Below are positions 5,030 to 56,698 of a stretch of DNA of 56,702 nucleotides, piece by piece. Where the stretch lies: the IMG/VR virus record IMGVR_UViG_3300039668_000004, positions 1-56,702 of that record. One strand, given 5' to 3'. The stretch comes from a virus. Lineage: Duplodnaviria > Caudoviricetes. How positions within the stretch are numbered: the stretch's first letter is position 1; every line of letters starts with the position of its first letter. The notes below the pieces were generated by a model, which had not been told where the DNA came from, ran no database searches, and saw only the letters and a program-made list of their open reading frames with translations. The position numbers were made by a program, and so were the translations under genes.

Positions 5030-6029
5030 ACAGTTAACCTACTCAGCCGAACATACTGATCGCGGAGTAATCCAGTGGGAGGCGATGGAGAAAGGCAAAA
5101 AGCGCAAGACGGAATTTGAGGCTGCGCCGACACGGCATTGCCTCAGGCAAATCTGCGCGCGTGCTGGCATACCGGCACAATACGCTGATCGCATGATTGG
5201 AGAGAACGCGCCATTGCTGGCAGAGAACATCAACTGGTGGTGGAAACGGACGCCAGAAAAACGGATGCTGCGCACGCTGCTCAACGGCAGCCACGTAGCG
5301 CGGGCGTTCCTCAGCGAGCGATATCGGCCGCTGGAAAACTGCGATCTGGCGGCGGCAATCCTGCCGAAGCTGGAAGCCCTCAACTGCGAAGTGCTCTCCT
5401 GCGAGATCACAGAAACGCGGTTTTACATTCAGGCGGCGACGCCGAAGGTCGAGGCCAAGCTGGTCGGAGATCGCGTGCGCGCAGGCATCGTGATCAGCAA
5501 CAGCGAAGTCGGCGCGGGCAGTCTCGCGCTGGAACCGCTGCTGTATTACCTGCGCTGTCTCAACGGCATGGTCATGCCGGTCGCCATGCGGCGATATCAC
5601 ATCGGGAGGCGCAACGACCCGCTTTTCGAGTTGGAGGCGGCAGCGGAGTATTACTCGGATGCGACGCGGGAAATGGATGATCGCGCCTTCTGGATGAAAG
5701 TTCAGGATGTCGCAGACGGTGTGTTCGACAAAGACCGCTTCAATGCGCTTGTGGATAAATTCGAGGGCGCAACGGAGCAGAAAATTAAGCCGGTCGAGGC
5801 GGTGGAAGAAATCACCGAGCGATTCAAGTTCAACGACACCGAAAAAGACGCGGTGTTGAACCACCTGATCGAAAGCGGTCAGCCAAACCTGTTCGGTCTG
5901 ATCAATGCGGTGACGCGGACAGCAACCGATGTCGAGTCGTATGATCGCAGCATCGAACTGCAGCGCGTGGGTGGCGAAATACTTGAACTGCCGAAGACCG
6001 TTTGGCAGCAGCTACGAAAAGGCTCGTAA
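4944..6029 (+). CDS. DUF932-family protein
   Basis: ARAFLSERYRPLEN..GIVISNSEVG..LRCLNGMV..FGLINAVT motifs; 361 aa. Confidence 0.7.
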   Translation: MKTGRSLREVAAQIQREARERKDFRVPTEQLTYSAEHTDRGVIQWEAMEKGKKRKTEFEAAPTRHCLRQICARAGIPAQYADRMIGENAPLLAENINWWWKRTPEKRMLRTLLNGSHVARAFLSERYRPLENCDLAAAILPKLEALNCEVLSCEITETRFYIQAATPKVEAKLVGDRVRAGIVISNSEVGAGSLALEPLLYYLRCLNGMVMPVAMRRYHIGRRNDPLFELEAAAEYYSDATREMDDRAFWMKVQDVADGVFDKDRFNALVDKFEGATEQKIKPVEAVEEITERFKFNDTEKDAVLNHLIESGQPNLFGLINAVTRTATDVESYDRSIELQRVGGEILELPKTVWQQLRKGS

Positions 6030-12777: not shown

Positions 12778-12803
12778 AGCTTATCATGAATTCAAGATAA
12801 GCT
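12778..12803. repeat. 26-bp palindrome, copy 2
   Basis: AGCTTATCATGAATTCAAGATAAGCT; between the two minus-strand genes. Confidence 0.95.
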
Positions 12804-17008: not shown

Positions 17009-18436
17009 ATGTTAACAGATCCAAATTACGAGACGAGGACGCTGCTGGCGCCCTTCGATGAAGGTCCAGTCGTTCACACGTTTTTGCGCGACACATTCTT
17101 TGGCGCGCGCGAGTATCCGCCGACCAACTTGGTCGAGTTCGACTTCCGGCGCGGTCGTCGGAAAATGGCACCATTTGTCGCGCCACTCGTTGGCGGCAAG
17201 GTGATGGAGCGCGAAGGCTACGAGACACGGTTCTTCCGTGCGCCACGCATCGCGCCTGTGCGCAATCTGCGCATTCCTGACTTGGAACCGAGAATGTTCG
17301 GCGAGACGATCTACTCAGGGCGCACGCCACAAGATCGCGCTGCCGATCTGCTCGCGGAGGATGCGGTGTATTGCGACGAGGCGATCTCGCGCAGAGAGGA
17401 ATGGATGTGCCGCGAAGTGCTGGTCAACGGCCAACTGACGATCACCGCCGATCACGGCTACACGATGGTCGTGAACTTCCTAGAAAACTCGACCGGCACG
17501 CCTGCCGACAACCATCAGGCACCCGCCAACGGCACTTGGGACGATATCAACCTCTCGACGCCGCTGACGGACTTGGAGGATGCACGGCTGGCGACCATCG
17601 CAGCGAGCGGAGTGTCGCCGGATGTCGCCCTCTTCGGCACCAAAGCGAAGGAGGCGTTCATCAACAACCTGAGCGTTCAAAAGTTGCTGGACAACCGGCG
17701 CTTTGAAATGGGCAACGTCAAGCCAGTCATCCAAGACTCGGCGGTTGTCCTTTTCGCGACGCTGCCCGGTCTGCAGTGCTACGTCTATGCGGAATACTTC
17801 GAGGACGACATGGGTGTGCTGTTCCCGATGCTGCCGGAAAACTTGGTGATGCTGCTCAGCAGCCACGTGCAGAACAAGATCGTTTACGGCGCGTTCACGC
17901 AGTTGGAGGACGTGCGCAGCAAGCGATTTGTGACCTATCAGATGTCGCGCATTCCGTTCGTCTATGGCGAGGAGGAAGACGGCCAGTTGTTTTACCGATT
18001 GACCTCATGCCCGCTCCCGATGCCGAACGACGTTCTCGGCTGGCGCATCATTGACGCTCTGCCGGCGACAGGCACCTTCGGCAGCGGTGGCAAGGGCAGA
18101 CCCATCGTTGAGATCAGCGACAAGGGCGAAGGCCGCGTCGAAGGCAAGACGGTCGAAGGCAGACCTTACTTCGCGCCGACCAATGAAACTGCGCATGAGA
18201 AAAACATGCCAGAGGAAGCGCGACAGATAAAGGAGGCCCTCGGTCAAGGCACGCCCGCTGGACAGCCGAAAGGCAAAGGCGGCGGCAACAAAGGGAAGCA
18301 GCCCGACTACGAGAGACTGACGGTGCCGGAGCTGAAGGACCTCGCTGCTGATCGCGGCTTGGAAGTGGCGCATGATGCGCGCAAGGATGACATCATCGAC
18401 GCGTTGAAGGAGGACGACAAGAACCACAGCGCGTAA
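17009..18436 (+). CDS. Major capsid protein (gpE family) with C-terminal HeH/Rho-N-like extension
   Basis: TFLRDTFF, RKMAPFVAP, ISRREEWMC motifs; C-terminal LTVPELKDLAADRGLEV..RKDDIIDAL. Confidence 0.92.
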   Translation: MLTDPNYETRTLLAPFDEGPVVHTFLRDTFFGAREYPPTNLVEFDFRRGRRKMAPFVAPLVGGKVMEREGYETRFFRAPRIAPVRNLRIPDLEPRMFGETIYSGRTPQDRAADLLAEDAVYCDEAISRREEWMCREVLVNGQLTITADHGYTMVVNFLENSTGTPADNHQAPANGTWDDINLSTPLTDLEDARLATIAASGVSPDVALFGTKAKEAFINNLSVQKLLDNRRFEMGNVKPVIQDSAVVLFATLPGLQCYVYAEYFEDDMGVLFPMLPENLVMLLSSHVQNKIVYGAFTQLEDVRSKRFVTYQMSRIPFVYGEEEDGQLFYRLTSCPLPMPNDVLGWRIIDALPATGTFGSGGKGRPIVEISDKGEGRVEGKTVEGRPYFAPTNETAHEKNMPEEARQIKEALGQGTPAGQPKGKGGGNKGKQPDYERLTVPELKDLAADRGLEVAHDARKDDIIDALKEDDKNHSA

Positions 18437-26846: not shown

Positions 26847-27617
26847 ATGAGCGAAAAGAATCTTCTCTCCGACACCGACTACACGAAAGGTTGGGACAAT
26901 CGGTTTGGCGTGTCGGTTGCGGTCGGGCGCGTGAGCAAGATCGAAGTGACCGACAAGCAGGCGAACGTGCGCGTGATCTTTCCTGATCGCCTCGATCATG
27001 ACGACCAGCCGCTGATCAGCAAACCGATTCCAGTCCTGCAGGTCGCGTCCCAATCCAAAAAGAGTTTCGCCATACCGCGGCTCAACACCAACGTCCTCTG
27101 CGTCAAGCTGCCGAATGGCACGAGCAATTACGTTGTGCTCGGCGGCTTTTATACCACGAACGACCCGCCTCCGGTGTCTGACCCGATGCTGGATTACGTC
27201 GAATATGATGACGGCTCGACGATGCAATTCGACGCGAGCACCGGCGAACTGACTTGGAAGATCAAAGGCGATCTGCTGCTGGATAACGGCAAGGACTTCA
27301 CGATCAAGCAGCAGGGCGACTTCAACGTGGAGGCGCAAGGCAACGTAGCGATGAAGGCGCAGGGTGACATGGACGTTGAGGCGTCGGGCGACCTCGTCAT
27401 AAAAGGCGGCACGATCAAGCTGCAAGGGCCATTGACGATAGAGGGCGACATCACGCACACTGGCAACATGCACACCAGCGGCGTTCATCAGGACTCGAAC
27501 GGTTTTCATCAGAGCGGCGCGCGCGAGGACTTGGAGCGGCGCGTCGCTGCGCTGGAAGCAACGGTCAGCGCGCTTCAAGCGACAGTCGCCGCGCTGGACA
27601 AAAGGAGCTTATCTTGA
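26847..27617 (+). CDS. Baseplate spike protein (gpV)
   Basis: VGRVS..VRVIFPD OB-fold-like N-terminus, beta-helix repeats and HQD apex motif. Confidence 0.85.
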   Translation: MSEKNLLSDTDYTKGWDNRFGVSVAVGRVSKIEVTDKQANVRVIFPDRLDHDDQPLISKPIPVLQVASQSKKSFAIPRLNTNVLCVKLPNGTSNYVVLGGFYTTNDPPPVSDPMLDYVEYDDGSTMQFDASTGELTWKIKGDLLLDNGKDFTIKQQGDFNVEAQGNVAMKAQGDMDVEASGDLVIKGGTIKLQGPLTIEGDITHTGNMHTSGVHQDSNGFHQSGAREDLERRVAALEATVSALQATVAALDKRSLS

Positions 27618-27631
27618 ATTCATGATAAGCT
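27606..27631. repeat. 26-bp palindrome, copy 3 (opposite orientation)
   Basis: AGCTTATCTTGAATTCATGATAAGCT; supplies the TGA stop of gpV. Confidence 0.95.
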
Positions 27632-36538: not shown

Positions 36539-36564
36539 AGCTTATCTTGAATTCATGATAAGCT
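36539..36564. repeat. 26-bp palindrome, copy 4 (left border of the modification cassette)
   Basis: AGCTTATCTTGAATTCATGATAAGCT; starts 2 bp after the fibre stop codon. Confidence 0.95.
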
Positions 36565-36680: not shown

Positions 36681-37022
36681 ATGCCACGTTTCGCGGTCAT
36701 TGCGGTTTTCACGGTCGAAGGTTTCCATCGCTGGCCGGACGCTCCGGCGCCGGTCGAGTTCCTGCGGCAGCGGCATCGCCATTTGTTCCACGTGGAACTT
36801 TCGCGGTGGGTGACGCACGCTGATCGCGACATTGAAATCCTGATGCTGCGCCGACGCGGCATAGAAGTGCTCTGCGGCGAGTATGGATTGCCGTGCGAGT
36901 TCGGCAGCCTCTCCTGCGAGCACATCGCCGATTTCCTGCTGCGCGCGCTCAACCTGTCACGTTGCAAGGTCTTGGAAGACGGCGAGAATGGGGCGGTCGC
37001 CTATGATGTCCATCCTTCGTGA
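36681..37022 (+). CDS. dpdL: QueD-like T-fold protein, DpdL-type (predicted 7-carboxy-7-deazaguanine decarboxylase)
   Basis: LRQRHRHLF fits the LxxxHRHxF signature I recall for DpdL. Also EGFHRWP, SCEHIA, EDGENGA. Cluster has folE/queD/queE but no queC. Confidence 0.7.
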   Translation: MPRFAVIAVFTVEGFHRWPDAPAPVEFLRQRHRHLFHVELSRWVTHADRDIEILMLRRRGIEVLCGEYGLPCEFGSLSCEHIADFLLRALNLSRCKVLEDGENGAVAYDVHPS

Positions 37023-38010
37023 TACAATCGCCAACCTGCCGCCGTTCACGCACGGCGACATCAAGCCGCGCGAGTTGGTGCAGGAGCTCGCCTACGACCG
37101 CCACACGATTGAGGCAGCAGCGCAGCCGCGCCTCTACCAGTTTGAAACGACCGCTCGCTGCAATCTGGCGTGCCCGTTCTGCCCGCGCACGATTGACCTT
37201 GTGCCGAACAAGCGGCGAGACATGGAGGCGACCGTCAAGCTGGCCGACTTCGTGAAGGTCCTCGATCAAATGCCGTGGCTACGCAGCCTTGAACTGTTCC
37301 ACTTTGGAGAGCCATTCATGCAGAACGACTTTCATGAGTTCGTGCAGGCGTGCACAGATCGCGGGATATATTCGGTCGTCGCTTCCAATCTGCTGCCAGC
37401 GACGGAAGCAAAGCTGGACCGTGCTTTCAAAGCTGGCCTGAACTTTCTCGTCATGGACGTGGACAGTCTCAACGCCGATCGCTACGCGAAAGCGCGGGTC
37501 GGAGGAACACTTGCCCGCCTGCATGAACGAGTCTGCTACATCCTCGCGCACGCCGAAAAGCCGTGGTGCGTCGCCCAGACCATCATGTTGAAAGACAAGC
37601 CGGAATTCACCATGCAGGAATTTCTCGAATGGAGCGGCGGCCTCCGCCCTGACGAGATCCGCTACAAATTCCTTGATTCCTTCCGCGGCTTTGTAACGCA
37701 AAAAGGCACGCTCGGCGAAGAAGATGTCTGTCGAGAAGCCTTTTACGGTTTCACCGTGCACGCGAACGGCAATGTCGTGGCGTGCGACCGCGACTGGGCC
37801 GGAGAGAACGTGATGGGCAACGTTTTCAAGGAGGATGTAATGGCGATCTGGCATGGCGCGAAGTTTAACGCCTTCCGCGCGCAGATGAAGTCGAAAAACA
37901 AACCGGCGATGTGTAAGGGCTGCAAGGAGGGAAGGATGGTCAATGCGCGCTCGCAGCCGCATATCCAAGTGAACATGTTCAGAGGCGCGGAGGTTTATCA
38001 CGACCGATGA
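37003..38010 (+). CDS. Radical SAM protein with SPASM domain
   Basis: CNLACPFC (CxxxCxxC), HFGEPF; C-terminal CREAF..GNVVACD..MGNV..IW..CKGC. Confidence 0.92.
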   Translation: MMSILRDTIANLPPFTHGDIKPRELVQELAYDRHTIEAAAQPRLYQFETTARCNLACPFCPRTIDLVPNKRRDMEATVKLADFVKVLDQMPWLRSLELFHFGEPFMQNDFHEFVQACTDRGIYSVVASNLLPATEAKLDRAFKAGLNFLVMDVDSLNADRYAKARVGGTLARLHERVCYILAHAEKPWCVAQTIMLKDKPEFTMQEFLEWSGGLRPDEIRYKFLDSFRGFVTQKGTLGEEDVCREAFYGFTVHANGNVVACDRDWAGENVMGNVFKEDVMAIWHGAKFNAFRAQMKSKNKPAMCKGCKEGRMVNARSQPHIQVNMFRGAEVYHDR

Positions 38011-39056
38011 TTTACTTCCTGCCGATTGAACCGCTCGAAGCGCGCTACTCCGCGCAGATGCTCAAATGGGTGAGCGACGATCTGGAAAACCTCGTCGGCG
38101 CAAAACGCTTCGCGGTGCTGCTGCCCTCTGCGCCCAACCGATCAATCGCGCATGGACAATTCCTCGACGATTACGCCTCCACTCAATTCAAGGCGTGGCA
38201 GCTGGCGATGGTGTCGTATCTGTTCCAGAGCGGCAAAGTTCACACCGGCGACGTTTTCCTTTTGGGCGACGTGTGGTTTCCAGGCATCGAGGCAGTCCGG
38301 ATGATGGCAGACCTTGCCGGCGTCGGCGTCAAGATCGTCGGCTGGCACTACGCGGGCACCTTTGACCCTGCCGATTACTACAGCCGCTCGCTTGGGCCTT
38401 GGGCGCGGCGGTTTGAGGAAATGCTTTGCGAGCACGTTCTGGACGCGGTGTGCGTCGGCTCGCGCTCTCACGCTGATCTGCTGCGCAGCAACTTGAAGGT
38501 CGCAGTCCATCCGTTCGGCCTCTCATGGAAGCCACAGACGCTGATCGAACACCGCGACGAGCCACGCGAAAACATCGTGGTGTTTCCGCATCGCATCGCG
38601 CCAGAGAAAAACGTGCAGGCGTTCCTTCGCTGCGCGCGCAAGTTCAAAGGCAAGGGCTGGCGCTTTGTGATCTCGACGCCGATGGACGAAGCGCAGCGTC
38701 AGGCGGCTCTGCTGCTCGCGCGCGAGACCGTCGAAGTCGTCGCGCACAACAAAGCCGATTACTACGCGCTGCTGCGACGCTCCAAGATCGTTTACAGCGC
38801 AGCCAAGCAGGAAACCTTCGGCTACGCGATCAATGAGGCAATCGCGTGCGGCTGCGGCGTGGTCGCGCCGAACCGGCTGAGTTATCCAGAGGTGTTGGAG
38901 CACGATCAAAAGTTTCTCTACGGCGAGGACGATCAGGACGGTGTCGCGCTGCTCGCTCAGCGCATGGCGAACCATGTGCCGGTGCCGTTCAGTTACACCG
39001 ACAAGTATTCAAACTCGACGGTTCGCTTCCTCCGAGCCATTCTGCCTGTGCTGTGA
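38007..39056 (+). CDS. GT-B (GT4-like) glycosyltransferase
   Basis: FPHRIAPEKN, QETFGYAINEA (ExFG..E), PNRLSYPE. Confidence 0.88.
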   Translation: MIYFLPIEPLEARYSAQMLKWVSDDLENLVGAKRFAVLLPSAPNRSIAHGQFLDDYASTQFKAWQLAMVSYLFQSGKVHTGDVFLLGDVWFPGIEAVRMMADLAGVGVKIVGWHYAGTFDPADYYSRSLGPWARRFEEMLCEHVLDAVCVGSRSHADLLRSNLKVAVHPFGLSWKPQTLIEHRDEPRENIVVFPHRIAPEKNVQAFLRCARKFKGKGWRFVISTPMDEAQRQAALLLARETVEVVAHNKADYYALLRRSKIVYSAAKQETFGYAINEAIACGCGVVAPNRLSYPEVLEHDQKFLYGEDDQDGVALLAQRMANHVPVPFSYTDKYSNSTVRFLRAILPVL

Positions 39057-39925
39057 AAATTTTTGTCGCTGGCGCTGGCAACTACGTCGATGCGCTGCGC
39101 ATGACCGGATTGTTTGGCGGGCTGGATTGCTTTTCGAGTTACTTCGACGTGCGCGAGGTGGCGCGGTTCAAGATGTTGCGCAAGCATCGCCCGCGCTCGG
39201 TCGTCTGCGACAGCGGCGCGCACGCATACTTTTCCGCGAGCGGCGTGCAGAGCGCGTCGCCGGTCAAGCTGGCAGCGCGGCTGGATGCGCCAGACGATTA
39301 CGTGGAAGGCTACGCGAAATTGATTCATGAGGCGCTGCCGTTCGTGGATAAATTCGTTGAGTTCGACACCGTCGATATCCACGGCAAAAAGTTTCAGGCG
39401 TGGCAGCGCAAACGTTTACTCGAGGCGGTGCGCGACCCTGCGCGATTGATTCCAGTTTACCGGGCCAGCGAGCCGCGGAGCGCGCTGCACAAGCTGATGG
39501 ATGAGTTCACGACCATCGGGCTTGAAGGCTATCGCAACAAAACTTTCCTGCTGCCGGATTACCTCGACATCACGCGGAAGTGCTACGAGAAGCAGATCAA
39601 GGTCCATGTGTTCGCGTCGGTTGATCGACGATTCCTGATGCAATGTCCGGTGTTCTCGACTGACAGCAGCAGTTGGAGCATGGTCTATCGGGCTGGCGTC
39701 TTCAATCGCTTCACCGGCAAAGGCATGAGCAACGTTCACCGCACGCAAATCCCTCGCAGATTTGACATCGCGCTTGGCGTGGCCGAACCGCTTGCGAAGG
39801 CGCAGGTCAAAACGGCGACGGTGTTTCGTTACCGCGATCTGATCCGCACCTCGCTTGAACAATATGAAAAGTTCGCTCGTTACCTCACCGATGTATGGAC
39901 AGCACGGGGAATAGTCTGGCAGTAG
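39053..39925 (+). CDS. dpdA: DpdA-like DNA guanine transglycosylase (TGT fold)
   Basis: DSGAHAYF, FVEFD, LIPVY, VHVFA and STDSSSW occur in TGT-barrel order; GTGA overlap with the glycosyltransferase gene. Confidence 0.75.
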   Translation: MKIFVAGAGNYVDALRMTGLFGGLDCFSSYFDVREVARFKMLRKHRPRSVVCDSGAHAYFSASGVQSASPVKLAARLDAPDDYVEGYAKLIHEALPFVDKFVEFDTVDIHGKKFQAWQRKRLLEAVRDPARLIPVYRASEPRSALHKLMDEFTTIGLEGYRNKTFLLPDYLDITRKCYEKQIKVHVFASVDRRFLMQCPVFSTDSSSWSMVYRAGVFNRFTGKGMSNVHRTQIPRRFDIALGVAEPLAKAQVKTATVFRYRDLIRTSLEQYEKFARYLTDVWTARGIVWQ

Positions 39926-40590
39926 GCAAACGGACATTCCGCATCGTGCCGCTGGCGCTGCTGGTCAAGGCAGACTGGAATTACAAAAAGGAAGATGAGG
40001 AGCGGTCGAAAAAACTCGTCGCCAACCTCAAGCGCAACGGCCAAGTCGAAACGCTCCTGGTGCGCCACCTGCCAAACGGCAAGATGGAAGTCGTCAACGG
40101 CAATCACCGATACGACGCGCTCGCGGAACTCGGTGTTAAAAGTGCGGCCGTATGCGATCTCGGAAAAGTCAGCAAAGCCGAAGCGATGCGGCTGGCGGTC
40201 GAGACGAACGAGACAAACTTTGAAACCGACTACGTCAAGCTGTCGGGCTTGTTCAAGGAGATGAAGCTGGAATTCAAGGAGGACGATCTGCTTTCCACGC
40301 TGCCTTTCGATGCGCGCGAACTCAGCGACATCGAACAGATTACCAGTTTCGAGTGGCCGCAGGCGTATGAGAAACCGGACGCGCAGCGAGGCGCAGCAGC
40401 GCGCGCGAAAACTGAGCCGTTCGTTTTTCACCTCACCTCTGCAGAGCAGAACGCATGGACAAACTTTCAAGCGCGCAGCGGTCAGCCAACCGCCGAAGCT
40501 GCGCTGATGTTCGCCATTCGCGGCGAGAGCAGCAACGGACAGAAACGCGGCAACAACCGCCGCACGCCGCTACCGCCCAAACCAAAGTGA
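39895..40590 (+). CDS. ParB/Srx N-terminal domain protein
   Basis: KLVANLKRNGQVETLLVR..EVVNGNHRYDAL (GxxR motif). Confidence 0.85.
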   Translation: MDSTGNSLAVGKRTFRIVPLALLVKADWNYKKEDEERSKKLVANLKRNGQVETLLVRHLPNGKMEVVNGNHRYDALAELGVKSAAVCDLGKVSKAEAMRLAVETNETNFETDYVKLSGLFKEMKLEFKEDDLLSTLPFDARELSDIEQITSFEWPQAYEKPDAQRGAAARAKTEPFVFHLTSAEQNAWTNFQARSGQPTAEAALMFAIRGESSNGQKRGNNRRTPLPPKPK

Positions 40591-41033
40591 AGACCTGCAC
40601 GAAAACCTACGTGGACATTCCTTTCGCACATCGCGCGCCGTTTCACGATGGTCACTGCGCACTTATCCACGGCCACAATTGGTCGTTCGAGATCACATTC
40701 ATTGCGCGGGAAGCGGACGCTAACGGCTTCATCGTGGACTTCGGCAAGCTGCAGCCGTTGAAGGAAAACCTGATGGCGATGTTCGATCACAAGCTGGTGC
40801 TCAATGACAACGACCCGCTGGCAGAGAAGCTGATCGCCTTCACAGCGAAGTGGCACATCAGCAACATCGTGCGATTGCCGGACTGTTCCTGCGAAGGCAT
40901 AGCCAAGTTTGTTTTCAATCTTGCTGACGGCTGGGTGCGCCTGATCACCGACGACCGCGCCCGCGCGCTGCGAGTGGTAGTGCATGAGGATGCCAAGAAT
41001 TTTGCCTCGTATGGAGCAATCGCTGAAGGTTAA
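40587..41033 (+). CDS. queD: 6-carboxy-5,6,7,8-tetrahydropterin synthase
   Basis: FAHR..CALIHGHNW, GFIVDFG, FDHKLVLN. Confidence 0.92.
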   Translation: MKTCTKTYVDIPFAHRAPFHDGHCALIHGHNWSFEITFIAREADANGFIVDFGKLQPLKENLMAMFDHKLVLNDNDPLAEKLIAFTAKWHISNIVRLPDCSCEGIAKFVFNLADGWVRLITDDRARALRVVVHEDAKNFASYGAIAEG

Positions 41034-41598
41034 CGAAATCTTTTACTCGATTCAGGGCGAGGGCGCGCGCGCAGGCGAACCGTCAATCTTCATCCGGCTG
41101 GCGGGCTGCGATCTGGCGTGCTCGTTTTGCGACACCGAGTTTGAAAGCCAAGCGGTAATGTCGCTCGCTGCGATCAGCCAACACATCAGCGGCCGTCCCT
41201 GCAAATGGATTGTGTGGACGGGCGGCGAGCCAATGCTGCAGATCAACTATGAAATTGTCGAATTCTTCCACGCTGCCGGTTACAAACAGGCGATTGAAAG
41301 CAATGGCAATCACGCCATTCCGAAAACAATCGACTGGCGCGTGGTTAGTCCGAAGGTCGCAGAGCACGTCGTCAAACGGCACAATCCGGAAGGCGTCGAT
41401 GAACTGCGATACGTCCGACACAGCGGCCACATGGGAGTGCCTCAACCTGCGATCAGCGCGCAGTTTTATTACCTCTCACCGATCTTTAACGGCAACACGC
41501 CGGACGTTGCGAACGTGCGCCATTGCATGAAGCTGGCGATGGAAAATCCACCATGGCGACTGAGCCTCCAACTTCACAAGCTGCTCAACGTCCTGTAA
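41011..41598 (+). CDS. queE: 7-carboxy-7-deazaguanine synthase
   Basis: [40 protein letters not shown]. Confidence 0.95.
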
Positions 41599-42431
41599 GG
41601 CGCGTCGATTGGCCGGAGGTGTTCGGGCGCATCATCGCGCGCATTCCCGCGCATCACGTTTACTACGGCATCCCACGCGGCGGCACGATGGTCGCGGGCC
41701 TCGCTGCAGCGCACGGCTACAGCGTGACCGCTGACCCTGCGAGCGCGACAGCCTTTCTCGACGACCGCATCGACAGCGGCGCGACCAAAGCGAAATGGCA
41801 GACAAACGGCAAACCGTTTTACGCGCTGTTCGACGCGGGCGCGGAGTGGCTTGAATTTCCGTGGGGCGCAGACATGGCGACAGACGCGGAGGATATCGTG
41901 CGGCGGCAACTGCAACTGATCGGCGAGGATCCAAACAGAGAAGGGCTGCGCGACACACCCGCGCGCGTGGTGCGATCATGGCAGGAACTTTTCGCAGGCT
42001 ACAAGCAGCAGGCCGACACGGTATTGAAGTGCGAGTTTGAAAAGGATGGTTACGATCAGATGATTGTCTGCCGCGACATTCAGTTTTACTCGACGTGCGA
42101 GCATCACCTTCAACCGTTCTTTGGCCGCGCGCACGTTGGCTACCTGCCGAACAAAAAGGTCGTCGGCTTATCGAAGCTGGCGCGGCTGGTTGACGTTTAC
42201 GCGCGCCGCCTGCAAATCCAAGAACGGCTGACAAAGCAGATCGCCGACGCACTCAACGCCGCGATCAAACCGTTGGGCGTGGCGGTGGTAATCGAAGCGC
42301 GGCACTTTTGCATGATCTGTCGCGGCGTCCAGAAACAGGAAAGCGGAATGGTGACATCAGCGATGCTCGGAGCGTTTCAAGAACCGGCACCGCGATCAGA
42401 GTTTTTCCGGCTGGTAAATCGTTCCGGTTGA
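41553..42431 (+). CDS. folE: GTP cyclohydrolase I with N-terminal type I phosphoribosyltransferase domain
   Basis: PRT part: [24 protein letters not shown]. FolE part: [42 protein letters not shown]. Confidence 0.93.
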
Positions 42432-42441
42432 AGGGCTGCTC

Positions 42442-42467
42442 AGCTTATCTTGAATTCATGATAAGCT
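42442..42467. repeat. 26-bp palindrome, copy 5 (right border of the modification cassette)
   Basis: AGCTTATCTTGAATTCATGATAAGCT; starts 10 bp after the folE stop codon. Confidence 0.95.
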
Positions 42468-42657
42468 GCTCCGGCGTCGCGCCTCTGCTGCGCTGCTCAG
42501 CGCGAGAGCGACCCAAAATCCGCTACACTATACAGTAAAGCGATCAGCGCGCGCGGAACCGAAGGCGCGTAAAACGAGGCGATTTACTTGGGCAAAGAAT
42601 TTAACCGCGTGCTGTAAAAGCCCGCAAATCGCTGCTTTACGCGACTGATAACTTTTC

Positions 42658-42686
42658 TTGCGCAACTTGCGCAGAATAATTACTTT
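42658..42686 (+). promoter_or_regulatory. Putative sigma70-like promoter for the ncRNA / early operon
   Basis: TTGCGC-N17-TACTTT within a locally AT-rich patch. Confidence 0.45.
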
Positions 42687-42692
42687 ATTGAT

Positions 42693-43516
42693 CGGGTTTA
42701 CATGCAGCGCAGAGGGAGGCGCGAGCAATCGTTATTTGAAATCAAGATCAGCAGAGCAGCAGCGCAGCGCAGATTTAAGCGCGCGCTGATCTGAGCAGCA
42801 GCGCGCAGCGCGCGATTGCAAGCATCGCAGATTACTCGGTGTGCTTGGTGCTCTTACGCTGATCATTCCAAATCAGATCGAAGGTTAATGGGTAAGCACT
42901 CTATCCGGAGAAAGTCCGTGAGTAAGGTCAGGAACAAACCGAACGCTGCGCTTGATTGCGCATGATGCTTGTAGGTCCTGAGCGACGAGGAAAACGCTGA
43001 GAGGTTCAATCGACAATTTGGAATCAATGAAAATCGAGTCAGCAATTTGAGCAGCAGCGCAGCGCGCGTCCTGAAAAACGCGCTGCGCTCTGCGGGCGAT
43101 CACCGAAAGGAGTCGTTAGCTGACGCTGCCAGTCGCATAGCAAAGCGCGCTGGTAATTGCATGATCGGGATACTTCGATGAGGCCAAGCGCAGATGTTTT
43201 TTCCACTGTGGGTTAGCACAGACGCCGACGATGGGCGGTAAGCTGCGCGATTGATCAAGGGTGATCGAGGCTGCTATGCGCTGCTGTTCTGAGCAGCGCG
43301 AGGCGATTCAGTTTTAGTGTTGAAGCTGATCGCAGCGCGCAATGGGGGACAGCGGATAGCACCAGCTAGGAATCACACCAATCGTCGCCAGCGCACAAAT
43401 TCGTCAGACGAACATCTGCCATGCTCGCCAGACCTTAGCGGTCGCAAATACAGAGCATGTTCAAAGTGCGGCGGGAGAAGTCGAAACGACCAAAGACCTA
43501 TTCGGGAATGGTCGTC
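42693..43516 (+). ncRNA. Candidate large structured non-coding RNA (about 820 nt)
   Basis: No credible ORF. Many nested long-range helices (42817-26/42964-73, 43038-43/43119-24, 43190-98/43411-19, 43226-32/43381-87) and a crossing 9-bp helix (42865-73/43016-24). Confidence 0.65.
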
Positions 43517-43556
43517 GCGCGAGGTTGATCGCTCGCGCCTGATGATGACAGATCAA
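43480..43556 (+). ncRNA. Type II hammerhead ribozyme
   Basis: GTC-GAA-ACGACC..GGTCGT-C-GCGCGAG-loop-CTCGCGC-CTGATGA-T-GAC. Loop I TTGATC is complementary to the 3' tail GATCAA. Confidence 0.85.
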
Positions 43557-43591
43557 AACCAAAACAGCAGACAATAAGAAACCAAAACACA

Positions 43592-44035
43592 ATGAGAAAA
43601 GTAAAGCAGACAGCAGCAGCAGTGAAATTGGCACAGCCAACCGATACGATGCCGTATTGCATCAAGCTACAAATCAGCGCGAAGGATTACCATGCGCTCG
43701 TCGAGCACTTCGCGACACCCGCGCATCTGCGCATGGGCAAGCCGTTGGTCGCAGTGAACGAGGTGTATTCCGCATATGGGTGGGAAGCAAACCTCAAAGC
43801 GTGCGCAGCGCAGCGCGCAGCAGCGCGCGGCAATGGCGGCAATGGCGGCACTCCGATTGCAGGCCAGCAAGGCAAGCAATCGGTAATCACGTTCGCCAAT
43901 CACGGCGGGCGCGAGCAAGCCGGATTGTTTCATAGCAAAGACGGCAAGCATCGCATCAACGTGCGCAAGGCGGGCAGCAGCGAGGTCATTTCAATCGCGC
44001 GCTGCACGATCATCCTCAATCCCGATAACCGATAA
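43592..44035 (+). CDS. Hypothetical protein
   Basis: 147-aa ORF after an A-rich leader; first gene downstream of the hammerhead. Confidence 0.6.
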   Translation: MRKVKQTAAAVKLAQPTDTMPYCIKLQISAKDYHALVEHFATPAHLRMGKPLVAVNEVYSAYGWEANLKACAAQRAAARGNGGNGGTPIAGQQGKQSVITFANHGGREQAGLFHSKDGKHRINVRKAGSSEVISIARCTIILNPDNR

Positions 44036-44067
44036 GGCAGCAGCAACAAGAAAGGAAACAGCAGACA

Positions 44068-44490
44068 ATGACAGCAGCAGCAAAACGAAAAGCAAATTGG
44101 AATGGCATGAATTGGATTCGGCAGGAGAAGCGGCTAGCGATCTACCTGCGCGACGCACTCGCTTGCGTCTATTGTGGCGCAGCAGTGGAGCAGGGCGCGG
44201 CTCTGCAGCTTGATCATGTAGTGCCCGTTGAGCAGCGCGGCGGCAATGGCGCTGAGAACTTGGCGACATCGTGCGACCGGTGCAATCAAGCGAAGGCTGA
44301 TCGCAACCTCGCAGAGTTCGTGCGAGCGACAGCGGCGTATCTGAACAATGGCATCCAAGCCATTGACATTCACAAGCATGTGCTCGCCTGCCTCAAGCGA
44401 CCGTTGGACATCGCGGCGGCGAAGGCACTGATCGCTCAGCGCGGCAGCGCAGCGCGCGTGCTGGCGGCGAGAAGATCGGAGGCGGTCTGA
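44068..44490 (+). CDS. HNH endonuclease
   Basis: RDALACVYCG..LDHVVP..GGN..ENLATSCDRCNQAK. Confidence 0.92.
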   Translation: MTAAAKRKANWNGMNWIRQEKRLAIYLRDALACVYCGAAVEQGAALQLDHVVPVEQRGGNGAENLATSCDRCNQAKADRNLAEFVRATAAYLNNGIQAIDIHKHVLACLKRPLDIAAAKALIAQRGSAARVLAARRSEAV

Positions 44491-46701
44491 TGGAGGCGCT
44501 TACCTACTACCAAGCCTATCAGGAAAAGCCATACTACATCGCGGTCTGCAAATATGGCTACGGTGTCGATCGAATTCCGGCGATGGCAATTCGGCTGGCG
44601 CAAACCGAGGTGCCGCAAACCTCGCGCCCTTCGCAGTTGCTGATTTATCGGGCGCTGGATTTCATCGAACCAATCGGCTTCGGCAAAGGCGGCGCGCAGT
44701 GGCCTAACGGCAGCAAACCAAAGCTGGTCGGCCTGACAACCACGCATCGCGGCTATCGCCAATCGCCGCGCTGATCAGGGGCTGGCAGAGCCCGCAGCGA
44801 CCCGCGCAATGGGTCGCTGTCGCTCTGCTCGCATGATGTGAGCAGACCTCAACGGGCGCGGGTGATGCGCCCAAAGTTAGAAAACCAAAAGAGAAAAACC
44901 ATAAGTATGAAAAACAGCAAGACCAAAAACAGCAGCAGCAAACCAGCAGTCAAATCAATCGCCAAGTCGGCGGTTAAAAAGCCAACCACCAAACCAGCGC
45001 CGAAGAAAAAAGCGGCAACGGCAAAGTCGGCGGTGCGCCCTCGCTTCACCATCTTTGGTGAGAAGTCGGCAACGTCGGTGGTTCGTGCGCTCGGCAAACT
45101 TAATTGGAAGCCAGCGGACGCAATCAAGGCAATGGGAAAGCTGGCGCCGAAACTCTCGGCGGTCGCAATTCGGAACTCGCTCTTCGTCGGTCGGCACGGA
45201 AAAGGTGCTGCGCCTGCGACGCTCGCGCGGACGGAATTGGCACAGCTGAAGCGGCTGGCGGCCTAATTCATCGGTCGTAGATAAGGAGCAGCGCGCTCGG
45301 CTGAGAGGCTGGGCGCGCTTGCCTTGTCGATGGTCGGCAGGAAACACAAGGAAGGAAAATGAGACAATGAAAGCAGCGATCAGGCAGAACGTGTATGGCA
45401 ATTGGTATGGCTACCTCGGCGGTCGCAAGGTGGAATGGTTCACCGGCAGCACGACCGAGCAGGAACTTGCAGCGCATGAGTGGTTGGAGCACAACCAATT
45501 CCCGCCCTGCGATTACTTCGTGCGGCGGCGCGGCGGTCTTGCTCGCTGCGGCGAAACATCGGTGGTCGTGATCAACGGTTACGCGCGATGCAGCGCGCAT
45601 CGAGGAGGCGACCAATGAGGCTGAGCAAACGGAGGCGACTGCGCAAGCTGCGGCGGTCGCTCGCAGTATGTCGCGCGCGCGAGACTGCCCGCGCTGCAGA
45701 GCAGCAGAGCAGAGAAGCAGCAGCATGGCACAGCGCGACGAGCACAGCGCAGAGACAATACAAACTGAGGACTTAAAACAAATGACAATGATTGAAAGTG
45801 AGATCGAATCGAAACTGGCGACGGTCGCAGATCGCGTCACGTTCACCAATCGCGCGGCGACCGCTGTGCTGGCCTATTACAGATCGCGGCCAGACCATGC
45901 GCTGTTCGCGCAGCGCGTAGCCGATGCGCTCGGAATTCCGCTGCAGCGATGCGACGAAATCCTGATCGACAGCGGCGACGATACCAAAGGTCGTTTCGTG
46001 TGGGCATCATTCCTGATTGACGATTACCGCAATCAGGCGGGCAAGCCGCGCGGCGTAGAGAAATTCCAGGCGGGGCTGACCTCGATTGGAGACCTGCTGG
46101 CGAAGGCAATCGCTGAGCAATGAGAACCAAACGTAAATATCCGCCCGTGGAGTCCGTTGCTGACTTTCGGGCGCGCATCGCTGCGCTTGTGCGCGGCAGC
46201 AGCAACACCGAACTGCCGCCAGTCAGGCGCTCGCATCCATGTGTGGTGCGGCGTCCGACTGATCGCGGCTACTATCCACCAACCAAGAAAGGAAAATGAA
46301 TGACACTGACACTTGATAAAAGCCACCTCGATCAATTCGAGAACATCGCGCCGCCTATGAAGGATGCGCTGACGCTGCCGGTATTGGGAACGCACGGCGT
46401 GTTAATTTACGTCTGTCGCAGCCCGTTCTCTGCGCACATGCCACAAGCAGCCAAGCGCGGCGACGTTCTGCGCGTGGCGCAGGCGTTGACGCTTGCCCTG
46501 ATCATGCTGGCAACCACCGCGTGGGCTGGCGACAATCGCAAGCATGAGCGCAGCAGCGCAGACTATATCCTGCGAAGGCAGGAGAGCGGTGCAGTCGAAG
46601 GCACTCCGAGCGTGCGCCGCATCATAGGCAAGCGGGAGATCGACGTTTACCGCAACGGTCTCATGTTTGAAAAAGATTCGGTCGTTGGCGTCGCCAAGTG
46701 A
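44490..46701 (+). other. Small hypothetical CDS (44490-44774; 44907-45266 Lys/Ala-rich; 45367-45618; ~45782-46123; 46300-46701)
   Basis: + strand ORFs, several with purine-rich leaders, separated by hairpins. Confidence 0.6.
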
Positions 46702-46785
46702 ACCGCGAAACCGTCCCGCGAGCGCGGGCGGTCAGTGAGGCGCAACCGGTTCGCGCCCTCGCTCTGATGAAGACAAAGCAACCGA
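46700..46785 (+). ncRNA. Second type II hammerhead-like motif (minimal stem II)
   Basis: C-GAA-ACCGTCCCGC..GCGGGCGGT-C-AGTGAGGCGC-loop-GCGCCCTCGCT-CTGATGA-A-G. Loop CGGTTC is complementary to the 5' flank GAACCG. Confidence 0.65.
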
Positions 46786-46810
46786 TTAGAAGAAAGGAAC
46801 ACAACCACCA

Positions 46811-47515
46811 ATGGCTAACAAAGTCATGAAGGTTCACCCGCTCTGCCAACAGTTCAGCCGCATGGCGCCGCTCCCTCCGAAGGAGCGCGCGGAAATGCAG
46901 GCGGACATCAAGGAGAACGGAATCAAAGTGCCGATCTTAATTGATCGCAAAAAGACAACCATCCTCGACGGTCTCACGCGCTGGAAAATGGCGCATGACC
47001 TCAACCTGAAACTGAAACCCGAAAACTTCGAGGTGTTTCAAGGCGAGGAAGCGGACATCGAAAAGGAAATCCTGTCGCGGAATTTATTTCGGCGGCACAT
47101 GGACGGCGATCAGCGCGTAGCAATCGTCAGCATGATCAGAGGCCCGCAGCTGGAACAGGAAGCGAAGGAGCGCCAGAGCACGGCTGGCAGCTTCAAGGGC
47201 AAAAAGAACGGCAAAGCCAAACCGGAAGTATCCGGCTCGGTGGCCGCGCACATTGCCAAGGAGGCAGGTGTCTCGCAGCATAAAGCGGAGCAAGCGGAGA
47301 AGGCGCGCAAGTCCGGCGTGCTCGGCGACGTTGTCGCTGGCAAGACCAAGCTGCGCAGCGCAGCAAAAAGCGCGGGCAAAAAGCCGCGCAAACCGAAAAA
47401 GGAAACTCCTTTCGAGGATCAGGTCTATAAAAAGTGGACACAGTTCATCAACCGATACGCGCCACCGGTTCGCCGCCGCGTGATGGACTTGATCAAAGGC
47501 TGGATTGGGAAGTAG
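46811..47515 (+). CDS. ParB-like N-terminal domain protein with HTH
   Basis: HPLC..MQADIKENGIKVPILI..ILDGLTRW, SRNLFRRHM, IAKEAGVS. Confidence 0.82.
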   Translation: MANKVMKVHPLCQQFSRMAPLPPKERAEMQADIKENGIKVPILIDRKKTTILDGLTRWKMAHDLNLKLKPENFEVFQGEEADIEKEILSRNLFRRHMDGDQRVAIVSMIRGPQLEQEAKERQSTAGSFKGKKNGKAKPEVSGSVAAHIAKEAGVSQHKAEQAEKARKSGVLGDVVAGKTKLRSAAKSAGKKPRKPKKETPFEDQVYKKWTQFINRYAPPVRRRVMDLIKGWIGK

Positions 47516-47533: not shown

Positions 47534-47559
47534 AGCTTATCATGAATTCATGATAAGCT
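47534..47559. repeat. 26-bp palindrome, copy 6 (perfect)
   Basis: AGCTTATCATGAATTCATGATAAGCT is fully self-complementary; starts 18 bp after the stop of the ParB-like gene. Confidence 0.95.
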
Positions 47560-53441: not shown

Positions 53442-54583
53442 CGAAGAGACGCAAACGGAAAAGACCGGACGCGCCACCTGACCCGATTGAAGACGAGCGC
53501 GGAGGGCTGCCTTCGGCGAGCGGTTTCGATTCGGAGTTCCGGTGTCCTGGTAAACGCGCGCTGTGCAAACGGTTGCCACGCGAGGAAGATCAGGCGGCGG
53601 CTGAGCGCGGCAAAAGAATCCATGACGCGCTGCAGGCGGGCGACTTTAGCAACCTCGTCGAGAACGAGCAGCGCACAGCCTCGCGCATCGCGTATGGCGA
53701 GAGTGAGATCGTGCATGAGCATGGTTTCGAGGGCGCAGAGGTCACGTTCGAGGAACGGATATGGGACTTCGACGATGCCTTCAATCGCACATGGAGCGGG
53801 CGCGTAGATCGCTACGATTGGCAACCGGACAAGCGGCGGCTGCTGATCATCGACGCGAAAAGCGGCTGGACATCACCGCCTCCGATTCACGACAACTGGC
53901 AGGTTCGGAGCGAGGCTGCGCTGCTCTGCGAAAACTTCTCAGCAGAGGAAGTGGTCGCTGGCCTGATACACCCGCACCATCCTGAATCGCTTTGGGAGGC
54001 GAAGGTTTATACGGCTGAGGAAATGCGACACCTTCTGGACATCGTTCGGGAGAATGTCGCAGCGATCACGCCGGACGCGCGGCGGATACCTGGGCCAATC
54101 CAATGCCAATGGTGCGAGGCGAAAAGGATCTGTCCCGAATACAAAGCGGCCAGCGCGGAACTCGAACAAGCGATTGCCGACGAGATCGCTGACCAAGGTT
54201 TCACAGCGATCAACCGGCGCGACAAACACGAACGCGGCAATCACGTTCGCGCGTTGAAGGAGCAGATGAAGAACATCGAATTCATCCTCGATCAATACGT
54301 TGAACTCGCTGAGCGCGACCCTGACGGTGTCGCTGGCTGGCGGCTGGCGCGGAAAATGACGCGCAGCGTGACCAATGAGATCAAGGCGATGGACCTCGCG
54401 CGCGCGGAGTTTGGGCCTGATGCGCTTTACGCTGCGCTCAAATTCAGTCTGCCCGCACTCGAGGCGCAGCTGGCGAAGACTGCGACAGCGAAGGAGGCGA
54501 AGGCATCGGTCATTCGCGTCCTTGGGCCGCTGATCAAATACACCAAGTCCAAGAATTACTTGGAGGAAGCGAGGTCGCTGTGA
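53438..54583 (+). CDS. PD-(D/E)xK exonuclease (Cas4/DUF2800-like)
   Basis: SAS..CPG, GKRIHD, SGRVD..IIDAKSG, Q, CQWCEAKRICP. Confidence 0.85.
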   Translation: MTKRRKRKRPDAPPDPIEDERGGLPSASGFDSEFRCPGKRALCKRLPREEDQAAAERGKRIHDALQAGDFSNLVENEQRTASRIAYGESEIVHEHGFEGAEVTFEERIWDFDDAFNRTWSGRVDRYDWQPDKRRLLIIDAKSGWTSPPPIHDNWQVRSEAALLCENFSAEEVVAGLIHPHHPESLWEAKVYTAEEMRHLLDIVRENVAAITPDARRIPGPIQCQWCEAKRICPEYKAASAELEQAIADEIADQGFTAINRRDKHERGNHVRALKEQMKNIEFILDQYVELAERDPDGVAGWRLARKMTRSVTNEIKAMDLARAEFGPDALYAALKFSLPALEAQLAKTATAKEAKASVIRVLGPLIKYTKSKNYLEEARSL

Positions 54584-55460
54584 CGCCTGAGACATTGCGG
54601 CTGTCGAGTGAAAAGCAGTTGGAAAGCTACCGGACTTTTCTGGCAGAGCGGCGGCAAAAACTGCGGGTGCTGTATCACTCCTTCCGTGGCTACGGCTCAG
54701 CGATGCAGCAAAAAGGGCTGGTCAAATGGAGCGGCGAAAAACGCGGCTACGTCTCGGAGGTGTGTTACATCGGCAGCGGCTTCGGCGCGAAGGAACGCGC
54801 GCTGGTCAAATCGCTGCTGCAGCTGGAAAAGAACATCACCCAACAGGCGCTGCTGCTGCTTGAAATGGAACATTCAATTGATTGTGAGGAGGTAAAACGA
54901 AATGAGCGAGGACAAGCGGAGAGTGTTCGGCAAGAAACTGATCGCGGCGGCGCTGGACACGTTTGAGGCGGCATACAAGCTGCACGAACGCGGCCAGAGC
55001 GAACAGGCGCTGCTGATCACCTTCGACATCTACGCGGCTGGCGACAGCTACGCGCCAGAGATCGCAGCGATGCACCGCGCGGCGATAAAGTCGGCGGTGG
55101 AGGCGTGCGACAAACAAATTCCGCTGCTGCTGGCTGGCTATTGGCTGGAACGGCGGCTTGCTGATCGAATGGAGAAAACCATCAATGAAGAAAATCAAAC
55201 GTAATCTGACGCACTCGCTGATCTACTCCGCGCGCGCTGATCGCTGGAAATGCAAGTGCGGCTACACGCTTGGCGACGGTCACGCGCAACTGTATGCGCG
55301 CTGCAAACTGGCGCAGCCGGAAGCTTATCATGAATTCAAGATAAGCTCCGCGCCCAAGGCAAAGAACCATGCGAAGAACCCGACTAAAAAGGAGCAACGC
55401 CAAACGGCGCGAACAGGAGCAGGAATATCACAAGCGGAGGCTGATCTTTTTAATCGCTAA
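54580..55460 (+). other. Three hypothetical CDS (54580-54966, 54902-55204, 55185-55460)
   Basis: Overlapping + strand ORFs. Confidence 0.55.
55322..55347. repeat. 26-bp palindrome, copy 7
   Basis: AGCTTATCATGAATTCAAGATAAGCT inside ORF 55185-55460, where it reads AYHEFKIS. Confidence 0.95.
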
Positions 55461-56213: not shown

Positions 56214-56698
56214 GCGAGGCTGTCACCATCTGCGCAGATACGCCGTGCGGCTCCTGCCCGTGGAGGAAAAGTAATCGCGGCAAGGACTCGCCGAAAGTCG
56301 AGGGCTTCCGATATCGGTGGTATTCGCGGACAAACCAAAACCGGCTGTGGCGCGGTTTGCGCAACGGCGAGCGCATGACCTGTCACCCGACCGATTCGCG
56401 GCATCCACAGATCAACGGCAGGGACTTGCCAGACACGGTTCAGACCCGCGAGTGCGCGGGCGCGCTGATTCTCGTTCAGCGGGAAATGATGATCGCTCAG
56501 GCGATGCCAGACAAAGGTTTCAAGACGTATCGGCGCGCGCGGCCTTTCGGCCTCACGCTCTGCGGGATGCGTGTGATCGTAGAGCGCGTGCTGTTCGCGG
56601 GCCTGTCATCGTGCAAGATGGGGCGACCGGACTTGAACGACGCCGACGTTCACTTTGAACCGCTCGGCAAATGGAAAGGAGTTCCAAAATGCAAATGA
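56210..56698 (+). CDS. Cys/His-rich protein (DUF6283-like)
   Basis: PCGSCPWR..TCH..ECAGA. Confidence 0.55.
   Translation: MSEAVTICADTPCGSCPWRKSNRGKDSPKVEGFRYRWYSRTNQNRLWRGLRNGERMTCHPTDSRHPQINGRDLPDTVQTRECAGALILVQREMMIAQAMPDKGFKTYRRARPFGLTLCGMRVIVERVLFAGLSSCKMGRPDLNDADVHFEPLGKWKGVPKCK

Follow-up and report, generated by a model that had tools for sequence, protein, structure and literature searches.

A probable pseudoknot-stabilised type II hammerhead ribozyme ahead of the small early-type genes of a 56.7-kb phage, and a second candidate before a ParB-like gene

An intergenic RNA element at 43479–43557 (+ strand) of an uncultured phage genome, here termed HH1, is in our judgement quite probably a functional pseudoknot-stabilised type II hammerhead ribozyme acting in + strand phage transcripts, likely for mRNA processing. 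The stretch of DNA analysed, called the window throughout, is a complete IMG/VR virus record (56,702 nucleotides, 56.7-kb) with an exact 127-bp direct repeat at its termini. From the anatomy of the element and the known hammerhead mechanism we infer self-cleavage and a role of HH1 in mRNA processing.

When both strands of the whole window were scanned with the gathering thresholds of all 4227 Rfam families, a single match exceeded its threshold. This was RF02276 (Hammerhead_II) at HH1, which scored 46.2 bits (gathering score, 37), with an E value of 2.5e-6 that covers this entire search space, and aligned across model positions 1–66 of 66. A permissive scan of 41500–45500 returned two extra matches only, both at chance level (mir-1251, 16.9 bits; sR28, 15.2 bits), and an RF02276 search of 14 control genomes matched none of them (0/14). 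The original prediction had described a type II hammerhead with a pseudoknot between loop I and the 3’ tail. Re-read base for base, all of its coordinates for HH1 were correct, and both the topology and the pseudoknot are backed by the Rfam model, by orthologues and by covariation in 139 distinct sequences.

The HH1 sequence (43479–43557) reads AGUC GAA ACGACCA...UGGUCGU C GCGCGAG GUUGAUCG CUCGCGC CUGAUGA U GAC A GAUCAA A. Its core is complete by the CUGANGA/GAAA/NUH definition, with CUGAUGA (C3–A9) at 43539–43545, GAAA at 43483–43486, including G12-A13-A14 (GAA, 43483–43485), and GUC at 43514–43516. These core positions, and the predicted cleavage site between C43516 (C17) and G43517, follow from the Rfam alignment. 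The stems are arranged in the type II permutation, in which stems I and III are closed by loops and stem II is open. Stem II pairs GUC 43480–43482 with GAC 43547–43549. The stem III hairpin (43486–43515) consists of ACGACC(A) 43486–43492 paired with (U)GGUCGU 43509–43515, amounting to 7 bp when A43492-U43509 is counted, together with an inner extension, and the stem I hairpin (43517–43538) consists of GCGCGAG 43517–43523 paired with CUCGCGC 43532–43538 (7 bp) around an 8-nt loop. Within this loop, UUGAUC (43525–43530) is complementary to GAUCAA (43551–43556) in the 3’ tail, giving a pseudoknot of 6 bp that exceeds the minimum of at least 4 bp for this feature, which is a majority but non-obligatory one in Hammerhead_II. 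Of the pairs that flank the core, A43486-U43515 and G43517-C43538 are in place; G43547-C43482 is also present, but an extra nucleotide, U43546, separates G43547 from A9. Minimum free energy (MFE) folding of the 79-nt element, with a program that cannot display stem II or the pseudoknot, recovered both stem I and stem III, at a z score of -2.2 and with 6 of 200 shuffled sequences folding equally well, along with a weak alternative hairpin, UGAU/AUCA.

This anatomy matches the RF02276 class as set out in passages of Perreault et al. 2011 (PMC3088659), namely a stem II that is open, GAAA, stem III, NUH, stem I and CUGAUGA following one another in this order, a loop I pseudoknot of at least 4 bp with nucleotides just 3’ of stem II, and an intergenic position before phage genes, with more than one copy per genome flanking blocks of genes. 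Since pseudoknotted type II hammerheads flanking phage genes were published in 2011, HH1 is an ordinary member of that type and adds to it. It differs from RF02276 in the extra U between A9 and G10.1.

Convincing ORFs occur on the + strand only across the whole window, and since all called genes lie on that strand, + strand transcription through HH1 is likely. The gene layout was read from PHROG matches. It begins with a replication-initiator-like gene, continues with the large terminase, portal, protease and major head protein and then, as far as 36.5 kb, with sheath, tape measure, baseplate and tail fibres, and leads through a 7-deazaguanine-type module (36883–42431, 36.9–42.4 kb) to a set of small early-type genes, an HNH endonuclease, a second ParB-like gene, a helicase, an Erf-like protein and an exonuclease, all on the + strand. 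The content of the module (radical SAM, glycosyltransferase, queuine tRNA-ribosyltransferase-like (DpdA-like), ParB-like, QueD-like, QueE-like and GTP cyclohydrolase) hints at a 7-deazaguanine derivative in the DNA of the phage. In the major-head-protein ORF (17009–18436), C-terminal residues about 393–473 match endonuclease VII-type PHROGs, and the ORF may be a fusion or an unsplit gene pair. The nearest relatives of the large terminase in prokaryote genomes are on two short contigs binned in Candidatus Udaeobacter MAGs, one with 78% identity (residues 31–129) and one with 62% identity (residues 32–629); these sequences give a weak hint that Candidatus Udaeobacter is the host.

HH1 lies near the end of an ORF-poor 1.1-kb gap (42431–43592) that separates the GTP cyclohydrolase gene from the first small gene. 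Its position is intergenic, on the coding strand and immediately 5’ of a gene. The start codon that had been placed 75 nt past G43517, ATG 43592, does open an ORF, of 147 aa (43592–44035, + strand). This first ORF after HH1 is an orphan with neither a PHROG nor a Pfam family, one partial relative among 5.8 billion proteins and no relatives either in viral contigs or in related records (0 of 5), and because relatives are absent there, synteny could not be traced through it. An 86-aa ORF with a GTG start that overlaps HH1 (43317–43577) was rejected as a gene: Pfam assigns it to no family, and in G001, one of the related records described below, the orthologue of HH1 is not spanned by any ORF of 60 aa or more. 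A blastn search of 42300–44100 against 50,697 phage records gave zero matches. Within 42000–47200, a scan for sigma-70-type promoters found 1 site against 1.6 expected, located inside the upstream gene, and a terminator scan found 7 terminator-like sites, every one of them on the - strand, compared with 8.3 expected, which is nothing beyond chance. The leader upstream of HH1 (42470–43345) is rich in direct and inverted motifs of the TGAGCAGCAGCGC / GCGCTGCTCAG type, which may be operator or iteron-like sites; motifs of this type were not found in the matching regions of G001, G002 and G007. Also in the leader, a 14-nt segment (42717–42730) is 93% complementary to 43527–43540, which spans loop I, the stem I 3’ strand and C3 of HH1. 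This segment could compete with the active HH1 fold, or the match could be due to chance.

A second type II hammerhead candidate, HH2, which the original prediction had overlooked, lies 3.2 kb downstream of HH1. It is an RF02276 match at 46703–46778 (+ strand) with 35.5 bits, below the gathering score of 37, and extends to 46784 when its pseudoknot tail is included; its identification relies on synteny as well as on the Rfam model. The core contains CGAAA at 46706–46710, GUC ending in C46733 and CUGAUGA at 46764–46770. Stem III has 9 bp with a bulged U, stem I has 10 bp with a bulged C, and a 5-bp pseudoknot pairs CGGUU 46747–46751 with AACCG 46780–46784. Stem II is reduced to about 1 bp, C46706-G46772, a pairing that requires A46771 to be taken as an extra nucleotide like that of HH1; this near-absence alone does not disqualify HH2 as a hammerhead candidate. 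HH2 begins 2 bases past the stop of the ORF 46300–46701 and ends 27 nt before ATG 46811 of a ParB-like gene (46811–47515, + strand) that was recognised by PHROG match and has orthologues in G001, G002 and G007. A search of the window with a model derived from HH1-like sequences, filters off, gave no credible further copy besides HH1 and HH2. A weak match at 54481–54552 (18.5 bits) was dismissed as chance, as it lies inside the exonuclease ORF and carries CUGAUCA and GAAG at the core positions.

A related large terminase is encoded by 75 viral contigs, and the closest 29 of these (59–76% identity) were searched with RF02276 at E <= 0.01. Matches were present in 3 of the 29 records and, among the 4 records with a completeness of 90% or more, in 2, and just one match among the 29 records passed the gathering score. 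The matches, together with those of the window, fall into two orthologous series, HHa, which is like HH1 and starts AGUCGAAACG, and HHb, which is like HH2. HHa was found in G001 (5253–5329, - strand, 42.7 bits), G002 (1935–2013, - strand, 36.8 bits) and G007 (39209–39290, + strand, 30.3 bits), and HHb in G002 (56582–56680, - strand, 28.8 bits) and G007 (41891–41971, + strand, 31.7 bits). The window, G002 and G007 share the order HHa, 2.7–3.2 kb, HHb and ParB-like gene, the distance between HHa and HHb in G002 spanning the record ends. In both G002 and G007, HHa lies 2.7–3.1 kb upstream of HHb, and HHb ends 20–50 nt before the orthologue of the ParB-like gene. The genes between HHa and HHb are not conserved, though the order is. 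On the other side, HHa in G001 and G002 ends about 15–25 nt before a gene of 304 or 315 aa that encodes an ArdC N-terminal domain and a zincin peptidase domain (E from 1e-32 to 1e-37), and this ArdC-like gene is, by its predicted domains, an anti-restriction-type early gene. There was no Hammerhead_II match at E <= 0.01 in G009, G016 (near-complete) or G029 (87% complete), and G001 keeps the ParB-like gene but is missing HHb, with no CUGAUGA in the preceding 240 nt. Because these three records are without a match and G001 is without HHb, the ribozymes are dispensable in the clade. Relatives gathered through FolE (three loci, 38,109 bases in all) contained no hammerhead at E <= 0.1.

Support for the fold came from covariation. 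MAFFT alignments of the hammerheads were dropped, as they placed the stems out of register, and four distinct HHa sequences were aligned with a model for which the window itself supplied sequence and structure. In this alignment 91.3% of 92 cells are standard pairs, a count inflated by the fitting of nested helices to the model, compared with 74.0 ± 2.8% in shuffled alignments (0/500 reach the observed value) and 19–39% when the pairing partners are slid. Twelve of the 23 pairs change on both sides, including all seven of stem I and one in the pseudoknot, where an A-U pair in the window corresponds to G-C in the orthologues. For a wider sample, viral contigs were scanned for conserved HHa ends, and the resulting 75 loci were searched with the model of the four HHa sequences, which gave 150 matches, 139 of them distinct. 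Here 91.9% of 3091 cells pair, again with nested helices fitted to the model and the count inflated accordingly, against 65.4 ± 0.6% shuffled (0/500 reach) and 29–44% slid. All four helices covary, 22 of 23 pairs being changed on both sides, with 7/7 in stem I and 6/7 in stem III. The three stem II pairs form in 99% of cells, and the core in the 150 aligned rows is CUGAUGA in 133, CGAAA in 147 and GUC in 129, values to be read with the fact that the pattern used to pick the 75 seed loci fixed stem II and part of the core. The pseudoknot lay outside the search model; 76.6% of its cells pair, and compensatory change is seen at each of its six pairs. Hammerheads often occur in arrays at these loci (35 of 75 carry between 2 and 7 copies, in every case in the same orientation and spaced at a median of about 400 nt, compared with 3.2 kb between HH1 and HH2), and six loci (L133, L125, L162, L141, L119 and L123) hold 4 to 7 co-oriented type II hammerheads within 2.5–3 kb, about 250–600 nt apart.

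The extra nucleotide after CUGAUGA to which the original prediction had drawn attention is present as U43546 (inserted in both the cmscan and cmsearch alignments) but is not a novel structural feature, as it has relatives among the 139 distinct sequences and a precedent in a viroid. No nucleotide is found between A9 and G10.1 in the three closest orthologues of HH1 (3/3). In the 150-row family alignment, 11 rows have a residue in the U43546 column, and in 10 of these it is U; CUGAUGA followed by U and a properly paired stem II occurs in 10 of 139 distinct sequences, the window included. The one G in this column (L144) is better read as part of a 4-bp stem II and was rejected as an insertion. 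Several of the sequences with extra U have a GCC/GGC stem II in place of GUC/GAC, and L123 contains three such hammerheads. The extra A10 of the CChMVd (+) hammerhead was reportedly first described by De la Pena and Flores in 2001. In that ribozyme, an A inserted exactly as in HH1, between A9 and G10.1, moderately lowers the rate of trans-cleavage, C or G at position 10 is harmful and U speeds cleavage 3–4 fold, as given in parts of two papers on it (PMC3705267, PMC1636495). The CChMVd (+) hammerhead is a type III viroid ribozyme with loop-loop contacts, whereas HH1 is of type II, has a Watson-Crick pseudoknot and comes from a DNA phage. A U after A9 is a known, recurring variant, reportedly tolerated in the viroid ribozyme and, as argued from its recurrence in 10 of 139 distinct sequences, probably tolerated in pseudoknotted type II hammerheads too. 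U43546 could conceivably lower the activity of HH1, since it sits at the A9/G10.1 junction and is missing in the three closest orthologues. Text in Perreault et al. (PMC3088659) indicates that the pseudoknot is required for fast cleavage of type II hammerheads and that small changes in spacing around it can drop rates by orders of magnitude.

In the mechanism proposed for HH1, stems III and I would fold during RNA synthesis, the 3’ tail GAUCAA would pair with loop I, and the 3-bp stem II would close the core. The 2’-OH of C43516 would then attack its own phosphate and cut the RNA before G43517, leaving an upstream product whose end is the stem III hairpin bearing a 2’,3’-cyclic phosphate and a downstream product with a 5’-OH at G43517, flush with the stem I hairpin and 75 nt before ATG 43592. 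Joined by the 3-bp stem II only, the products would part and the cut would therefore be effectively irreversible. Cleavage would free the early-gene message from the 1.1-kb leader or from read-through of the DNA-modification module, and both products would gain hairpin-protected ends. HH2 would act likewise, setting off the ParB-like message, and together the two ribozymes probably cut long phage transcripts into separate messages. Hairpin, 5’-OH and cyclic-phosphate ends of this kind slow exonucleolytic and 5’-end-dependent decay in bacteria, and the processing role is favoured because both types of end slow bacterial RNA decay. The same role is suggested for clustered prophage hammerheads in a passage of Perreault et al. 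(PMC3088659).

Other readings of the locus were weighed against mRNA processing. Both copies may be decaying or crippled, U43546 in HH1 and the near-absent stem II in HH2 rendering them slow or inactive, so that only a structured leader persists. The lack of the extra U in the three closest orthologues, the score of HH2 (35.5 bits, under the gathering score of 37) and the loss of hammerheads in related genomes all agree with this, as do natural core variants, some of which are weak or inactive by the account in Perreault et al. (PMC3088659, in part). It is nevertheless unlikely, given that the invariant core bases are all intact in both HH1 and HH2, that 10 of 139 distinct sequences carry the extra U, which argues for tolerance, and that the effect published for U10, so far as the text in PMC3705267 gives it, is positive. 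Another reading makes HH1 an expression switch that limits early or anti-defence expression, either because cleavage strips the 5’ triphosphate leader and so destabilises or silences the early message, or because pairing with the leader tunes the rate. The 93% complementarity of 42717–42730 to 43527–43540 could compete with the active fold, and the UGAU/AUCA hairpin of the MFE fold points the same way. But a single near-complement of 14 nt counts for little within 1.2 kb that are GC-rich and full of repeats, the relatives do not conserve the leader, so that its pairing is not a family feature, and nothing else indicates regulation. We regard a switch as still more improbable than decay.

The pairing of HH1 with HH2 allows a further reading, in which the two excise a 3.2-kb early cassette RNA (G43517–C46733) whose ends are joined by a reverse hammerhead reaction or an RtcB-type ligase to give circular or spliced RNA. 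Co-oriented hammerheads do bracket small variable genes in the window, G002 and G007, and ends consisting of a 2’,3’-cyclic phosphate and a 5’-OH suit RtcB. The possibility is also raised in Perreault et al. (PMC3088659), but the portion of that work concerned with it reports that spliced or circular products were sought and none detected; moreover, no more than 1 bp would form between the stem II halves of HH2 and HH1, and no ligase gene was noticed among the PHROG matches of the window. We regard excision with joining as the least probable of the readings. Scarcely more probable is a broader scheme in which HH1 and HH2 bound a hypervariable early or anti-defence cassette, the freed 3.2-kb RNA with its 5’-OH and 2’,3’-cyclic phosphate being open to closure into a circular phage mRNA by an RtcB-type ligase or by a hammerhead rebuilt from both halves, and in which they would form, with seven 26-bp hairpins, a host-independent punctuation of a genome transcribed in one direction.

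Splitting of phage transcripts at hairpins is familiar from phage T7, where RNase III processing hairpins between early genes cut the polycistronic transcript and leave hairpin-protected ends. HH1 is proposed likewise to divide a phage transcript into hairpin-ended messages; the T7 hairpins need a host enzyme, whereas a hammerhead needs none and leaves 5’-OH and cyclic-phosphate ends. Cleavage of type II hammerheads in cells has been described for Desulfovibrio vulgaris, in which three copies cleave in vivo by cyPhyRNA-seq and give fragments that carry 2’,3’-cyclic phosphate and 5’-OH ends, and these resemble HH1 in lying near hypothetical or phage-like genes, two of the trio being close together (PMC8782182, in part). 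The Desulfovibrio vulgaris copies are chromosomal or prophage elements of a cultured bacterium, and are likened to HH1 here by description. A hammerhead directly 5’ of the anti-restriction gene ardA in Legionella and a triple hammerhead in Agrobacterium tumefaciens are mentioned in Perreault et al. (PMC3088659, in part). The former recalls the HH1 orthologues that precede an anti-restriction (ArdC-like) gene in G001 and G002, but those genes are ArdC-like rather than ArdA, and the gene at the same place in the window is an orphan.

The role of the thousands of phage hammerheads is still open according to statements in a 2017 review (PMC6155905), and the HH1/HH2 locus offers a clean test case, being part of a complete phage genome with one transcription direction. 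HH1 lies where a long non-coding leader gives way to the first early gene, a gene of the anti-restriction type in two relatives, HH2 fronts a ParB-like gene that a conserved hairpin closes off, and relatives missing one or both hammerheads are natural controls. The locus itself leaves existing knowledge unchanged. What is added here are HH2, a conserved layout in which two ribozymes flank a variable early cassette, the association with an ArdC-like gene seen in relatives, the recurrent U insertion after A9, with ten natural type II examples, and a separate family of hairpin repeats punctuating the genome.

These repeats are a near-perfect palindrome of 26 bp, AGCTTATC(A/T)TGAATTCA(A/T)GATAAGCT, present in 7 copies in the window compared with 0 expected from 100 shuffles (2455–2480, 12778–12803, 27606–27631, 36539–36564, 42442–42467, 47534–47559 and 55322–55347). 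Six of the seven copies are at, or within about 25 nt past, the stop of a + strand ORF, including those of a tail fibre, the GTP cyclohydrolase and the ParB-like gene. The copy at 42442–42467 (+ strand) closes the 7-deazaguanine module upstream of HH1, and that at 47534–47559 (+ strand) closely follows the ParB-like gene. One copy is fully symmetric; of the other six, three are the reverse complement of the remaining three. The palindrome may act as an RNA hairpin (terminator, processing or 3’-stabilising) or as a DNA site for a dimeric protein. Repeats with AGCTTATC/GATAAGCT arms numbered 0 in G007, G009, G016 and G029. G001 carries arm repeats at L081:357–382 and L081:3850–3885, one after the upstream module and one before the ParB-like gene that is without HHb. 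In G002 the same 8-bp arms enclose a 10-nt non-palindromic centre in 12 copies (for example 56637–56662), all in one orientation relative to the genes, and one of these copies forms the tip of stem III of the G002 HHb.
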